A stretch of 63,997 nucleotides of DNA, filler included, from Ionaspis alba (Eukaryota): the NCBI GenBank assembly GCA_964255285.1. It is 3 parts of 3 records of this genome, joined end to end, with 100 filler letters (N's around TTAATTAATTAA, not from the genome) between each part and the next. Parts side by side here need not be neighbours in the genome. Positions count along the whole stretch, not along the records: positions 22,980 to 45,815 come from CAXUUL010000195.1; 2 more parts are not named here. One strand, given 5' to 3'. How positions within the stretch are numbered: position 1 is the stretch's first letter; each line of letters begins with the position of its first letter. Both the position numbers and the translations under genes were made by a program. Below the pieces are notes generated by a model. That model worked only from the letters and a program-made list of their open reading frames with translations. It had not been told where the DNA came from and did not search any database. Below are positions 22,880 to 45,915 of this stretch, in pieces.

Positions 22880-22979
22880 NNNNNNNNNNNNNNNNNNNNN
22901 NNNNNNNNNNNNNNNNNNNNNNNTTAATTAATTAANNNNNNNNNNNNNNNNNNNNNNNNNNNNNNNNNNNNNNNNNNNN
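22880..22979. other. Artificial contig linker N44-TTAATTAATTAA-N44
   Basis: All-frame stop spacer centred in Ns, identical in design to 45816-45915. Confidence 0.97.
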
Positions 22980-23430
22980 GAAATAAGGTTTTACCGCAGG
23001 AATTCTAAAGAATTCGCTCGGGTCATAGGGTTAGGGAAATTAAAATTAAAAAAATCAGAACATGTTTGTATATAAAAAAGGCAAATACAGGTACATTAGA
23101 TCTAATTGTAGAAATGGCAGGAGTACAGCCAGCTCTTATATAGAAAAGCCTCTAATCCAGCCCGGATTCGAAGCCGTGACGGCCTCGCTACTTCTCGAAC
23201 GCTGCCATTCCGAACCCAGACATCACGGTTGCAGAGCTCATTAAGACAAATGAATAGCATTGCCCACTATCCATTCCATAATCCTGCATGGTCGCACGGC
23301 TCGAAACCCTAAACCTCCCTCCGCCCCAGTGAGCTCTCCCGCAAAGCCCTGACCACCAAATCCAAGCCCTAATCCACACGGGTCGCAATGTTCCCCCAGC
23401 ACAAATCTCCAGGGGGATATCTCCATCAAG

Positions 23431-23471
23431 CAGTCTTCTTTCATTGTCCCCATACACCGAGCAGGCTGCTC
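23431..23471. repeat. 41-bp direct repeat, distal copy: duplicated PEX11 3' end with a nonsense change
   Basis: cagtcttctttcattgtccccatacaccgagcaggctgctc matches 24102-24142 at 39/41 positions. The minus strand reads SSLLGVWGQ*KKTA* (the final A* extends to 23426). Confidence 0.92.
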
Positions 23472-23479
23472 GGCCAAGA

Positions 23480-23857
23480 TCATCCAGAAACTGGACAGCC
23501 ACGGGTGGCGTAATACCCGGCGCTGATCCATCGATAGAAGTCTATAGTCCACCAGATGCCCATACCACCCAGCGTAAATAGTTTTCCAACTCCCAGTCCG
23601 ATATTGCCTGCGTAAAACTGATCTACGCCAAATAGGCCGAGGGCCAGGTTAAGGATGAATGCGATCCTTCCTTGGCGGTCACATTTCTCCAGATTATTCC
23701 AATGGTCGTCGTGAGTAACTAGTAAGAAAATCAATCATTTTTCAATAGAAGATAGAGTCAACTTACGGAACACAGACGGATATATCGTGGCTACAAGGAT
23801 ATTTGCAAAGGTCAGGAGGCAAGAAATCGCTGTTATTATCTTCAGGTATAGCTCCAT
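23480..23857 (-). CDS. Small TM2-domain membrane protein (~109 aa, 2 exons)
   Basis: Exon 1 encodes a hydrophobic signal/TM segment (MELYLKIITAISCLLTFANILVAT). Intron GTAAGT 23766 to TAG 23719 restores the frame into AFILNLALGLFGVDQFYAGNIGLGVGKLFTLGGMGIWWTIDF, which fits the TM2 consensus. Confidence 0.85.
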
Positions 23858-24096
23858 CTTGGATGAAGCATATGTGGAGCGTTTATGACGAGATTTTGGT
23901 AAATAGATTAGGAGAGGTGCGAGCAAGACGTCGAAATATAAGTTCAGTTGAAGAAACAAAGCATCTCTAACACTGAGAGCTGCCAACGTACTAGGATTCC
24001 GCATTCGGCCAGACAAAGGCAGCAGTCTCAAACGAGCTTAACACGCATTCCCAAGTAGCCGCGGAATGCGGCCCACACAAGATGTGCTCCTAGCGC

Positions 24097-24918
24097 TTAA
24101 ACAGTCTTCTTCCATTGTCCCCACACACCGAGCAGGCTGCTCACAGTCCCTGCCAAACCCACGATACCATCATCCAAGTCGACATAACCGAGCGCTGAGC
24201 CGGGGACGGTTAGATCGCAGAGGTCGGAGACTAGTTGAAGGTTGACGGTCGTACGCTCTCTGAAGACCTGTCAGCCAGCTCGACAAGCGTACGGGGAGAC
24301 TTACCTCTCGACCCTTTTCTTGTCTTCTGTAGTAGCTTGCCTCAGGAGCCACAAAGTATATAGACCAGCGATTGTATTGAACAACAGTCCTATGAGCCAC
24401 GCTCTGTAGGCCTCCTTCTGCAATCGCTTTGCACTGTTTGACACTCTTATCCCAGCAGCATCAAGCTGTGTCTGTCAGCTTCGTCCTTGGTGACGAGGAG
24501 ATGTACCCACGTATGTGATCATGTCGAAACTGAGATACATCCCATATCCAAGTTGCCTTCCGACGGCACAATATTTTAGTATCGGATCCATGTTCTTGCT
24601 ATCGGCAGCGACTGCGGCGGCCTTGAAGTGTTCGACATTCTTGCCTATGCGAAGACACTTTCGCGTGAGACCGAACTGCTTCTTGATGGCTTCGAAGGGA
24701 GCAATGGTTCGCGTAGGACTATTGGTACGGAATAGATACCAGGCGTAGAATCGCGAAAAGTATTGGAGAGTTCTTAAGAGCTTGTCACGGCCGACTAAGG
24801 AGAGGGTGTTTCAGTACTCATAGGAAGGTCAGGAGATTGAGGGAGACTCACCAGTGGTCGCAACAAACCGCAGGTAGTGCGCTACAGACGGATGGTAGAC
24901 CAGTGCGTCTGCAACCAT
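24097..24918 (-). CDS. PEX11: Peroxisomal biogenesis factor 11
   Basis: MVADALVYHPSVAHYLRFVATTVGRDKLLRTLQYFSRFYAWYL...SSLLGVWGQWKKTV*. Introns 24851-24795, 24510-24466 and 24304-24260; 675 nt spliced. Confidence 0.93.
24102..24142. repeat. 41-bp direct repeat, proximal copy (inside the PEX11 CDS end)
   Basis: cagtcttcttccattgtccccacacaccgagcaggctgctc read directly. Confidence 0.92.
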
Positions 24919-25034
24919 TGTGTGTTCTGTTGATGGCAATGTTGCGGCTGTGGGCGTGAGTAGGTTATATATGGGAGAAACAGCTTAACCTCGGCATCGT
25001 CATCATACTTGGCAATCTACAATATATATCACGA

Positions 25035-27184
25035 TCATAAACTTCTAAATACATTGCCACTAGCACTCCTTCTTCCCTTATCACGCCGAACCTCCGTCTT
25101 CTCAATCTTTCGAGCCTTGCTTGTCCTCTCCGGAGCAAAAGTAATATTCCTCTCGCCAACCACCGCCGTAGAAGTAATTCGATCGCTCCTGTTTTGAACC
25201 GCCCTCGATCCAAAAGAACGATCTCGACTTTGTTGTGGCTTCTTGGAAGAAGTCACGAGCATCTGCGGTCGATGTCCGGAACGTTTGTAAGAAACGGACG
25301 AAATCCTTCCTTTATCTGCAGCTTTCGTTTCCTCCTCGCTTGTGTTCCCACTCCCAGATTCATTCGAGAGATCCTCTTCCTCCACGGCGGTGTGCTTTCT
25401 TGGTAATTGATCTCCAGGATTGGTACTTGGATTGAGAGATTGAAATTCTCTGGAATCCTCATTAATAGCATAATCCTCATCCTGGAAAAGTTTGGCAAAT
25501 CGAGGGTCATCGAGAAGACCGTTCTTAGTCTGCCCTTCATCATCCCCGCCTTTCTCCAATACACGTCTCGCTCTTCTCCGGTCACTCCTCTCCTCCCTCT
25601 CCAAAATCTTCTCCACCAGCCTCTTGTTGACTTTGGCGGCAACCTTCTTCGACCCTCTTATTCTGCTCTCTCTTTCACCATCAATCTTCTCTTTGACTTT
25701 CTTTGAACGTTGTTCTTCCCAAATGAACGGATCAGCTATTAGTTTGGCTTCTTCATAAAGTCTCTGTGCCACAAAGTATCCATGCATATATGGCCTGAGC
25801 AGACTTGTAGTTCCCACGAGATGTGATAGATTCAGTGTTATCAATTGCTGCATCGTCAAGAACTTGTAGTTGTCGTAAATCTCACCTGCATGTTGATGAG
25901 TAAAGGCATTCGGATCATTCGGGTCTTCGGCCATTTCCTCGACCAGATTGTCAAGAAAAGTACACCATTTTGGAGCTGGCCCTAGTTGAGGGATAAAAAA
26001 TGAATGTTGCTGCCGTCCCTCGTTTGCAGTGAGCAACATTCCAGAATCTTTGCACCATGCTACCGAGTTCAAGTCCACAGTCGGTTCGACAGAAGTCCAA
26101 GGAGTTCCATCCCGTCCATCCCAGATCTTGATGATTCGCTTATCGGCCGAGAGGATCTTTGGATCGTCTCTAGATGTCGAGGACGAAGTCAAAAAGAGAA
26201 GTGTATGGACTGGAAAGCCGTAGCCTTGATCTTTCTTGAGAAAAGGTAAAGGCGATCGTAAGTCATAAAGATGTATGAGACCGGTGGATGTGCCAGCAAC
26301 CATATTTAATCCGGATCGGTGGAATTCCAAGGCTGTCACTTCTTGCTTGCCCTCGAATCCATCAGAACGAGAAGGTAGCTGCAATATCCCAACACGATTT
26401 CTGGAACGAGAATCCCAAAACTCAACACTACCAATGGAAGTGCCGAAAGCAAGAAGATTGTGACTATCTTCTGCGATGGCAGCTGTATTGACACTACCAG
26501 ACCCCACACCTCCTTGTAGAGTACCACCACCAATAGATGAGAAGTCGTCACCACCTACATCAATCTCGTAGCTTCGCATATATCTGCCCACTTCCAAGTT
26601 CAATCGATAGACCTCGCCGAGTCCGCTGTCATTGATGCCCACTGCAGGAACAAGAGCCTCCGCAGATCTCTTATCGTACTTCAAATCTCGGCCATATCTT
26701 GGTATGCGGGTAGTAAAGTGACATCCCTGAGGTGTATGAAACTCGATGGAACGGTCGGCTTGTAAATGAATGGACTTTGAATAGTCGGAGGACAGCAAGA
26801 GAAAAGTGGTGTTGAGAGAAGTGGTGTGTCTGGCATATGAGAGAGAGAGATGCGGTAAATAGTGAGTGTGGATTTGAGGTTTGTACGTGCCTAGAATGTA
26901 TCATGTTAGCAAGCACAATCAGAGCAGCCCCAAAAGGTCAAGAATTTTTGATCATTAAAAGACATACCAGTACTCATCACCCATTGGCCATCTTCACTGA
27001 CCCGAACACACTGACTAGCCTCCTCGAATTCGAAATCCTGCAAAAGTTCGATGCGGCTGGCATATTCCGGATCATTCTTAAGGCTGCGCTTTCGTTTTCT
27101 CGCAAGCCAGTCTGGTAACGGACGTGCAGTAGATGAGCCTGAGATGGTATAAACAGGGACATCGGAGTGATTTGTCAATTTCAT
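25035..27184 (-). CDS. ENP2: Ribosome biogenesis WD40 protein Enp2/NOL10 (NUC153 domain)
   Basis: MKLTNHSDVPVYTISG...RIELLQDFEFEEAS, FFIPQLGPAPKWCTFLDNLVEEM, LLRPYMHGYF and DPRFAKLF. One intron near 26967-26892. Confidence 0.92.
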
Positions 27185-40063: not shown

Positions 40064-42857
40064 CTAATCCTTTGGCTCTTCTGTTGTAGAAATAGGACTT
40101 GTTCCCAAGCCCTCGTCGGTAATGCCGGTTCCCGGCCTTGCAAGTGGGCTTCCCTTTTTCATTGGGACTTTTGAAACGTCCTCAAATCTCATGCGAGATG
40201 TCCTCTTGTCTGTCCGANNNNNNNNNNNNNNNNNNNNNNNNNNNNNNNNNNNNNNNNNNNNNNNNNNNNNNNNNNNNNNNNNNNNNNNNNNNNNNNNNNN
40301 NNNNNNNNNNNNNNNNNTGGGACTTTTGAAACGTCCTCAAATCTCATGCGAGATGTCCTCTTGTCTGTCCGAAACCTTGGAATACCTGGCGAAAGCCCTG
40401 GCGAGGTATGCCGTACTTGCATATTGTCGCTAGAGGACCGAGGAAGAGGAGGCGCTGATCGGTCAGGCGTGTTGCCCCGTGAAGAATATGCGCGGTTTTT
40501 CAGCAGAAGTGGTGGTGTCGCTGGTACAGGTTGTCCGTCGGAAGCGGAAGGATGGGTGGGTGAGTAGATGCGATGGGAGTCATAGCCTTCATCGTATCGA
40601 GAACTTCCATATCCATCATAATTCCTCTCTTCCGCCGACTCTACATAATCCTCATATCCATTTTCTCGAGTATGATTCCAGCCCGCTTGGCTTTCGCCGC
40701 CACGGTACTGGTATTCCTCGCCTCGTCTCTTGATTGGACTTTCGTCGTAAGGGTCGAAACCTACTTGGCGTCTGGCCTCAGCTCGGAGACGTCTCCGTTC
40801 ATGTTCGTCGCCTTGTGCCGCGCCTGTTGTGGCTGATTCCGAGAGGAAGAAGTTCAAAAGTTCATCAGGAATAGACAGATGCGAGGTTTGTTGAAATTGT
40901 TGAAGGGAAAGAAGACGGAGAATCGTTTCGAGGAGGGAGAGGGAGGTACGGATTGGTGGAAGCGGTGCGGCAGTGATCATGGAGACCGTATTGGTTGGCG
41001 GAGATTGCGAGATGAGATGACGAGAATGGAAGGAGTCAGGACGGGGTGTGTCGTTCAGATAGAGCTTGGAAAGAGCCCTTGTCATCTCTGGATCGATGGA
41101 TGGAGAACGCGAGGATGATTTGTTCCTGCCTGGCGTCTCGATTTCAGATTCCGTATCAGATTGGGGATCGTCAGTATAGACCTCAAATGCCAGCCATTCA
41201 GGGTCGAGATCTGCTGGAATATGCCATTGGTTTAGGCGCGGCGAGAGACCAAAAGAACCAATCGATACCGTGGAAGAACAGTCCTGCTCACGTTCAAATT
41301 GGGCATCAATTTCGATCTGATTAGTATCTTGATCGACGTTTTTCCGTGACATGTCTGCATTGCTGGGATGCTCAACCCCAGCTTGTGGACTGTTTGCCTC
41401 CTGAAACCGTTCCATCATTCGTCGAGGTGGTATTGCATTGGTGTCTCGCTTCAAAAGAAGCACTGGGCTATTTACCTCTCCCTCGTTCCCGATGTTGAGA
41501 ATTTTTCCAGTATCTGCATAAAAGATCTTGGAAATTTCATGGACCGGTATGGCTTCACGGATCCCAGCAACATGAACATCGTCGTAGGGACCAGGTGCTG
41601 CCTCGTACTCTTCGTATGTATGAACACGATCGTCTTCGAGATCCTCGACAATGAGGAGTTGATATGCGTACTCGAATTCCTTGCCCTCTGCCTCGATGTT
41701 CGGTCGTTGATCGTCGTTCGACCCTGGCAATTCTGTAACCCCACTATCTGAACGCCTCCCGTATTTCAAGCCTGCCTCACTTTGCGGCAAATCGTACAGA
41801 GAGTCAAGAGGCACTCGAACAAGCTTCAGTCGTGCTTTGTGAATCACTTCTTTCCAAGTACTTTGTCTCATGTCCTCTTCTTTCTCTACAAAGGAATGAC
41901 CAAGGAACAGCATGTACAAGGAGAGAGTAAACGTTGGACCTATCTGGACAAAGGGGGAGGCCGAGCTGGAATACGCTGTATCTCCCGCGGTCAGGAATGT
42001 ACTTGCTTGGAGCAGTCGAGAAGGGGAAATCGTGGTCGGCAGAGATGTTGACAAGCTCGCACCAGAGGTGGTTATGGCGAGATTGATTAGTGGTACCGCA
42101 TCCTCTATTTTACTCAATACCTTTCGTATCTGGATCACTATTCTCTTCAGTTCAAGCTCGTTTTGGTGCTTTGGTTGAGATTCCGGATTTCTTTGCATAA
42201 GCTCTCCCTCGTTCGCCGCCCTTGCCAGACGTTGGCCAAGTTCTTGGATCTCCCATCTCAATGATTTCGTCAAAGACACAGCAGACTCAAGGGAGGTATT
42301 GCCACGGGCAGAGCTACATATCTGTCAGAGCGATGCCCGAAAACATGAAAAATGTGCCCGCATTAACGTACATCAGCTCGATCATGTCGATAGCAGGAGA
42401 TATTATCTATCATGACTAGTCAGGAAATGGATTCTCGGAACCAATCAGCGAAATTCGAAAAGCACAAGACGAAAAGCAAAGCATCTGGGACAAGGAAGCT
42501 ATAGAACTATTTAAAGCATAAATTGGATGTGTAGAGGGTGTAAGGATGTTCGAAGCAGACAAGGTAACAAACTCTAATCTTGCTGTCTAGGCGCTCCTGG
42601 AGAGCCTGGAGCTCTTCTCTTGCACTGTCATCTACATTCTGTATCAAAAAGTCAATTTTTTGGAACATTGGAGTTCAGGGCACGTCTGTCAGACCTTGAG
42701 AAGTCTAGATGATTGCCGAAGGGCATATCCTGCGGTAATGGTAATTCCAGAACTGCACGCTTCGTCAGAGATGATCGGGAATGTTCCTGTAGTATGTCCT
42801 TCACCGAATGGCATAGTTCATGGCCTGCTGAGTGACTTTGCTTAGAAGGACATCCAT
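40064..42857 (-). CDS. YRB30: RanGTP-binding protein (Yrb30 family)
   Basis: MDVLLSKVTQQAMNYAIR, IISPAIDMIEL, IEDAVPLINLAITTSGA, SPSRLLQAS, WKEVIHKA and SLSLLETILRL. The C-terminus (...STTEEPKD*) is recovered by collapsing the 55-bp overlap across the N gap. Confidence 0.85.
40218..40317. other. 100-N gap flanked by an identical 55-bp overlap (assembly artefact)
   Basis: 40163-40217 is identical to 40318-40372. Confidence 0.95.
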
Positions 42858-45815: not shown

Positions 45816-45915
45816 NNNNNNNNNNNNNNNNNNNNNNNNNNNNNNNNNNNNNNNNNNNNTTAATTAATTAANNNNNNNNNNNNNNNNNNNNNNNNNNNNN
45901 NNNNNNNNNNNNNNN
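45816..45915. other. Artificial contig linker N44-TTAATTAATTAA-N44
   Basis: Same design as 22880-22979. Confidence 0.97.

Follow-up and report, generated by a model that had tools for sequence, protein, structure and literature searches.

The locus described here is the left end of a contig of the lichen fungus Ionaspis alba (GenBank assembly GCA_964255285.1, record CAXUUL010000195.1), which starts at position 22980 of the stretch that we analysed. This stretch, called the window below, is 63,997 nucleotides (nt) long and consists of contigs chained by artificial linkers. The contig carries, on the minus strand and in this order, a NOL10-like WD-repeat gene (open frame 25035-26900), the gene PEX11 and a small gene encoding a TM2-domain protein. 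PEX11 and the TM2 gene are both intact, and the end of the PEX11 coding sequence is present twice: once in place, where it completes the gene (the near copy), and once more shortly behind the TM2 gene (the far copy). The 627-bp segment between the two copies comprises the TM2 gene together with 239 nt in front of its start and 8 nt past its stop (Table 1).

A repeat search of the window shows a direct repeat of 44 nt with 41/44 identities, whose two copies start 671 nt apart. An earlier note on this DNA, made from the sequence alone, had described a 41-nt core at 39/41; this core falls within the 44-nt repeat, and the tract grows to 46 nt at 42/46 once the last base common to both stop codons (TAA in PEX11, TGA in the far copy) is counted. 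Only these two sites occur in the 64-kb window at three or fewer mismatches, where 100 shuffles gave an expectation of 0.00. Homology stops abruptly at both edges of the repeat, the longest exact run is 18 nt, and no 31-mer is common to the two copies. Beginning 8 nt past the TM2 stop, the far copy lies in the frame of the TM2 open reading frame (ORF), an agreement that chance would give in one case in three, and it translates as SSLLGVWGQ*KKTA*. This ending, and the QWKKTV of PEX11 itself, agree with the translations given in the note. The copies differ by three transitions. Two have T in the far copy and C in the PEX11 copy on the plus strand, as had also been noticed, and the third falls in the Ala/Val codon.

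Both copies have the codons CTG CTC (Leu-Leu) at a place where 14/14 compared relatives encode Leu-Ile. The template of the far copy was therefore the PEX11 of this very lineage, at a time after its divergence. On the strength of these codons the duplication is home-made, and it is unlikely that a foreign gene end was brought in.

PEX11 has four coding exons (24918-24852, 24794-24511, 24465-24305 and 24259-24097), which encode 224 amino acids (aa) and end with the stop codon TAA at 24099-24097. Its place in the PEX11 family is based on matches to Pfam PF05648 in exon 2 (6.9e-35, 121 bits) and exon 4 (1.5e-14, 54.5 bits), against a curated cut-off of 23.8. Exon 2 is 85-91% identical to that of lichen-forming Lecanoromycetes (e.g., Circinaria, Lambiella, Imshaugia and Cladonia). 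All 17 relatives that we fetched are 234 aa long and end in WKKTA. The window protein has about 10 residues fewer in the variable loop preceding the last exon (24259-24330), where ATTEDKKRVER replaces a longer acidic/basic stretch. We also compared 80 PEX11 loci from metagenome contigs, many with 5-10 kb on each side. The C terminus could be read in 75 of them and was KKTA in 49/75, TA in 65/75 and KKTV in 0/75, which bears out the KTA-type ending that the note had given as usual. Given this prevalence of WKKTA and KKTA, Ala is the ancestral last residue, which the far copy still encodes, and the working copy has switched to Val. The far copy, for its part, has acquired the TGG-to-TGA change. 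The KKTA of the far copy is by itself no proof that it is the displaced original, as a patch copied before the Ala-to-Val change would look alike. The WKKTV end retains both lysines and thus a di-lysine-type C terminus; work on rat Pex11 describes binding of coatomer by its C-terminal di-lysine motif (PMC2148451).

We considered three further ways in which the far copy might have changed or might be used, and rejected each. Repeat-induced point mutation (RIP) acts on duplications far longer than 44 nt, and only some of the copy differences stand in its typical context. Alternative splicing from a donor-like GTGAGC at 24144 to the far copy would run into a stop codon in the PEX11 frame, and the one frame that is open there is unrelated. 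A present-day fusion of TM2 with the PEX11 tail, or read-through of the TM2 stop, would have to pass two in-frame TGA codons that lie between them in both genotypes described below.

The TM2 gene has two exons (23857-23767 and 23718-23480) separated by a 48-nt GT..AG intron (23766-23719) and encodes 109 aa ending in GCPVSG, followed by a TGA stop. The predicted protein has an N-terminal hydrophobic helix and then the TM2 domain, which matches Pfam PF05154 with E = 1.1e-12 and 48.3 bits, above the curated cut-off of 27.9. A complete spliced TM2 gene thus lies between the copies, as the note had stated. An alternative in-frame ATG lies upstream at 24004. Three differences of a second genotype upstream of 23857 hit first or second positions of that frame; we therefore favour 23857 as the start and consider 24004 less likely. 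In the last 25 TM2 codons, the same genotype has S-to-P, Y-to-F and A-to-G changes and one silent change. The gene looks functional from its sequence, with a tail that does not look strongly constrained.

A word-based protein search with the TM2 exon gave no match; HMMER and profile searches found relatives, HMMER with 3505 matches at E <= 0.001 among 1.84 billion representatives. Matches that span the query from end to end belong to one family of small proteins, which has named members in Fusarium, Trichoderma and the lichen Icmadophila ericetorum. The nearest named relative is P0363 of I. ericetorum (61% identity over 99% of the query). Bacterial YozV-type proteins match the 45-residue core only. 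In a quick tree, the window protein groups with P0363 and four unnamed clusters inside the fungal-type set (labelled by architecture), with Shimodaira-Hasegawa-like approximate likelihood ratio test (SH-aLRT) values of 86 and 89, which are below the 95 mark. As judged from these similarities, the TM2 gene belongs to a native fungal family. Horizontal transfer, which the note had wanted tested by a TM2 tree, is not indicated for a bacterial source. In Icmadophila, the TM2 protein is encoded on a 63,940-nt contig and PEX11 on another, of 54,405 nt. A limited literature search found no paper on fungal TM2 genes, which is weak evidence of absence.

Table 1. Features at the left end of the contig, by position in the window
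Feature	Position	Strand	Basis or remark
Artificial contig linker: N run, TTAATTAATTAA, N run	22880..22979	.	DNA to the left need not adjoin in the genome
AT-rich multi-copy repeat at the contig start	22980..23035	.	Assembly graph branches; summed depth 254 in X1
Unique non-coding flank behind the far copy	23036..23427	.	No convincing ORF; no similarity to relatives' flanks
Far repeat copy, SSLLGVWGQ*KKTA then TGA; non-functional	23428..23471	-	Repeat search and translation
627-bp segment between the repeat copies	23472..24098	-	Absent behind PEX11 in all related loci examined
TM2-domain gene, 109 aa, two exons	23480..23857	-	Gene model; Pfam PF05154, 1.1e-12
PEX11 gene, 224 aa, four coding exons	24097..24918	-	Splice model, translation, Pfam PF05648
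Near repeat copy: last 14 PEX11 codons and first base of the stop; functional	24099..24142	-	Repeat search

To check the arrangement for assembly error, contigs of three public runs (X1, X2 and X3) were compared with positions 22990-25100. X1 holds 97% of the sampled words and may be the sample from which the window came, and X2 is another sample of the same study. One X1 contig covers 23005-23575 and another runs from 23577 to beyond 25100 (records 6 and 8), with unique DNA on both sides of each repeat copy. X2 has low-depth contigs at 23371-23599, 23801-24240, 24232-24490 and 24809-24959, among which records 9 and 10 span both copies. These represent a second genotype, with 8 differing letters over 1079, none within either repeat copy, and with the same arrangement. 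X2 also contains PEX11 of other fungi (records 13 and 14, about 84% alike). An assembly artefact or chimera is conceivable in a metagenome-derived assembly, in a window of contigs joined by linkers, and where no X1 contig crosses 23576 and depth is unequal on the two sides of that position. We consider this explanation scarcely credible. With no 31-mer in common and a longest exact run of 18 nt, the copies cannot tangle an assembly graph; X1 contigs span each copy in unique DNA, and X2 contigs of the other genotype span both copies and 23576 as well. Both junctions are real, and the misassembly against which the note had advised a check is not the source of the repeat.

The 80 PEX11 loci were searched with the TM2 exon of the window and with 20 relatives (tblastn), and no TM2 match at E <= 1e-3 was found within 10 kb of PEX11 in any of them (best E 0.02). 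In the lichen-type loci, PEX11 has a different neighbour: L001/L016/L017, L011/L012/L013 and L060 all have NOL10, PEX11 and a long coiled-coil gene in this order on the same strand, the last starting 0.54-0.73 kb past the PEX11 stop. The first two of these groups have a further conserved gene in common about 5.2 kb downstream, and their NOL10 is 70% identical to that of the window (60% in L060). L036 has another arrangement downstream of PEX11. Collinearity of the window with the lichen-type loci extends from upstream of PEX11 to its stop, and not past it. Searches for the relatives' downstream genes (tblastx and tblastn) did not find them in the window, which is unsurprising given that the contig stops about 390 nt past the far copy. 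From the absence of TM2 at 80/80 loci and the shared, different downstream synteny, it follows that the position of the TM2 gene is lineage-specific among everything sampled. The note had named as its counter-case relatives with the same arrangement and KKTV as the ancestral end; among the related loci TM2 stands behind PEX11 in 0/80 and KKTV in 0/75. The empty site that it had proposed to look for was not seen: the related loci lack TM2 behind PEX11, and the relatives' non-coding flanks match neither the near-copy side nor the far-copy side.

In six non-lichen loci (L010, L032, L039, L040, L041 and L042), a conserved block of the TGTATGTAAGTGGGG...TTTTCCAG type, with donor-like and acceptor-like ends, lies about 60-110 nt past the PEX11 stop. 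This block, which neither the window nor the lichen-type loci contain, may be a regulatory element or an intron in the 3' untranslated region.

The make-up of the segment and its absence from the loci compared bear on whether it might be mobile, as the note had suggested in proposing a mobile unit of an undescribed kind. A cut-and-paste DNA transposon or miniature inverted-repeat transposable element was rejected, as a search for inverted pairs found no terminal inverted repeats at the ends of 23472-24098. A retrocopy made by a long interspersed nuclear element (LINE) was rejected as well: the 48-nt intron is retained, and no A-run precedes the far copy. The note had itself reported neither terminal inverted repeats nor a transposase, and we likewise found none in the segment.

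An integrating cassette deserves separate mention, since its layout would formally be the same, with a restored gene end, a displaced copy and direct repeats. A small circular or mobile DNA carrying TM2 and a PEX11-end attachment sequence would have entered the PEX11 end by Campbell-type recombination. The segment has neither a recombinase nor any ORF with a family match besides TM2, and the neighbouring genes are PEX11 and the NOL10-like gene. No terminal inverted repeats join its ends; neither the 64-kb window nor the 80 loci contain a second copy, none of the 80 PEX11 loci is occupied, and no contig of the three runs skips the insert. Both copies, moreover, carry derived codons of their own lineage, which makes arrival with a foreign PEX11 end unlikely. 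On these grounds the locus does not qualify as a Campbell-type element, an integrating cassette is very improbable, and the mobile unit of the note is unsupported.

Slightly less probable still is the most specific form of this idea, drawn by analogy: the TM2 segment would be a minimal, non-autonomous cassette that entered the last 44 nt of PEX11 by way of an attachment sequence and restored the gene end as bacterial integrative elements do. If true, gene-end-targeted integration would have a eukaryotic example. Once TGG had become TGA in the far copy, the cassette would be locked in, and excision between the copies would in most registers cost PEX11 its WKKTA end.

The explanation that we favour, and in which we would place about half of our confidence, is one old structural mutation: an insertion at a staggered break, with fill-in that duplicated the PEX11 end. 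At the very end of PEX11, cuts about 44-46 nt apart in the two strands would have opened a break, and a segment of about 627 bp with a complete native fungal TM2 gene would have been ligated into it. Filling in the overhangs would have duplicated the last 14 codons and the stop, so that the insert came to lie between two copies. The one joined to PEX11 would have kept the gene whole, including its di-lysine (KKxx-type) end, with Ala changing to Val later. The other, now the first stretch of the 3' flank of TM2, would have decayed (TGG to TGA). PEX11 would now terminate in what was DNA upstream of TM2, over the 239 nt to the TM2 start, and TM2 probably uses the old PEX11 3' flank, which under insertion is 23036-23427.

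Several observations fit this course of events. Staggered single-strand breaks, followed by fill-in and end joining, have been put forward as a source of duplications at rearrangement breakpoints in a study of Drosophila inversions (PMC1885836). A staggered break with fill-in leads one to expect copies that bracket exactly the lineage-specific DNA, that are both home-made, and whose duplication ends at the stop codon. The repeat does bracket exactly the lineage-specific DNA. The end at the stop codon would follow because the di-lysine motif of Pex11, which binds coatomer in the rat protein (PMC2148451), must stand at the very end, so that only duplications reaching the stop leave a working gene. 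Given an upstream nick within the coding sequence, the shortest duplication that reaches the stop is then the likeliest. The three or four differences between the copies, together with the presence of the arrangement in two genotypes, indicate that the event is not very recent and that it predates the genotype split. The recent capture considered in the note is not supported, with copies that differ at 3/44 positions and a second genotype (8/1079 letters) that has the same arrangement. Part of the note's larger proposal, integration of a cassette with duplication of the target, survives. TM2 arrived in this lineage (0/80 loci), the repeat flanks exactly the additional DNA, the ancestral Ala codon persists in the far copy, and PEX11 is intact with a new stop and 3' flank; the circular DNA invoked as donor is unsupported.

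The spacing of the copies could also be explained by tandem duplication of a 671-bp unit, comprising the PEX11 end and a resident TM2 segment, with later loss of the second TM2 segment to leave an A-B-A order. The direct orientation and the start-to-start distance of 671 are as such a duplication would give. Against it stand the need for a precise deletion as a second step and for a TM2 gene already in place, and the lack of any remnant of a second unit behind the far copy. We consider it improbable.

More serious, if still unlikely, is the possibility that the TM2 gene already stood behind PEX11 as a result of an earlier rearrangement, and that a break 8 nt past its stop was later mended by a templated copy, about 46 nt long, of the PEX11 end. 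The far copy would then be filler DNA. It is indeed short and sharp-edged, without flanking homology, and lies just 627 bp from its template. Its KKTA fits any copy that predates the Ala-to-Val change, and the non-coding comparisons cannot say which flank is the old PEX11 3' flank. This account requires two events where one suffices, as well as two coincidences: the lineage-specific DNA happens to be just what lies between template and patch, and the PEX11 stop happens to be where the template ends. There is also no microhomology at the edges of the patch.

A number of points weigh against insertion at a staggered break. The relatives' non-coding flanks match neither the flank of the near copy nor that of the far copy, and the direction of the event, that is, which flank is original, is not established by them. 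Compared with both window flanks by blastn at word size 7, the relatives' flanks gave matches in coding sequence only. Local alignment against shuffles gave one nominal match in 28 tests (L011 with the near flank, z = 3.2, 2/100 shuffles), which we count as chance. The comparison includes no close relative; even the nearest PEX11 loci reach only about 85% protein identity. The contig ends in repeat about 390 nt past the far copy, and the ancestral neighbour is not in the window. No empty allele was found, in that no contig of X1, X2 or X3 skips the 671 bp, although the parts that X2 and X3 leave uncovered are uninformative. X1 has no contig across 23576, where mean word depth changes from 57 on the left to 150 on the right, and an X2 contig bridges the site. 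The AT-rich repeat nearby may have biased the coverage, or a second haplotype may diverge in TM2 exon 2. A stagger of 44 nt is much longer than usual target duplications.

The rest of the window adds little to these genes. At the AT-rich contig start (22980-23035), several X1 contigs branch into other AT-rich DNA, with three listed loose ends at 23028-23035; a degraded repeat at which the assembly broke off is the probable explanation. The linkers at 22880-22979 and 45816-45915 (N runs around TTAATTAATTAA) have stop codons in all six frames, and gene order across them is not to be trusted. An exact 55-nt repeat (40163-40217 and 40318-40372) borders a gap of 100 N at 40218-40317. The two units are probably contig ends that overlap by one assembler k-mer, and the gap is probably artificial. 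Searches of the window gave no Rfam match and no tRNA gene.

If insertion at a staggered break is the right reading, the locus is a natural example of a whole gene moved beside an essential gene without harm: 14 duplicated codons kept the exact PEX11 C terminus, and the old 3' flank passed to the newcomer. Scars of this kind are seldom so legible in fungi, and this would be a dated, testable case of gene relocation driven by break repair in lichen fungi. No new class of element is called for unless further copies or circles are found. A limited literature search found no such case described in fungi, which is weak evidence of absence.

Both genes are ordinary members of their families. Small fungal TM2 proteins (PF05154), such as P0363 of I. 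ericetorum, the "TM2 domain-containing protein" of Fusarium redolens and Trichoderma hypothetical proteins, have in common with the window protein an N-terminal helix, the Cys-x-(R/K)-Q motif, the G-x-D-Q-F-Y-A-G core and a C-terminal G-C pair, at 50-61% identity. Among the loci compared, however, only the window has a member of this little-studied family behind PEX11.

Prokaryotic integrative elements and prophages insert into gene 3' ends and restore them. The present locus resembles them in a target gene left intact by a duplicated end, in a displaced far copy and in flanking direct repeats. It differs in having no integrase and no sign of mobility or further copies, in its eukaryotic host, and in that both copies come from the host gene. 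Target-site duplications of transposons and LINE retrocopies are typically 2-20 nt long. The likeness to these lies in direct repeats of target DNA around inserted DNA, whereas the repeats here are 44 nt long, the intron is kept, and there are no inverted ends, transposase or junction poly(A).

A close parallel is with the breakpoint duplications of Ranz et al. 2007 (PMC1885836). As set out in their treatment of breakpoints, non-repetitive host sequence that includes gene ends is duplicated at the edges of a rearrangement, transposon hallmarks are lacking, and the copies diverge by substitution, all of which applies here. Theirs are inverted duplications at inversion breakpoints in Drosophila, whereas those at PEX11 are direct, 44-46 nt long and placed around a 627-bp, one-gene insert in a lichen fungus. 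We file this locus as a further and unusually legible case of break-repair insertion with target duplication.

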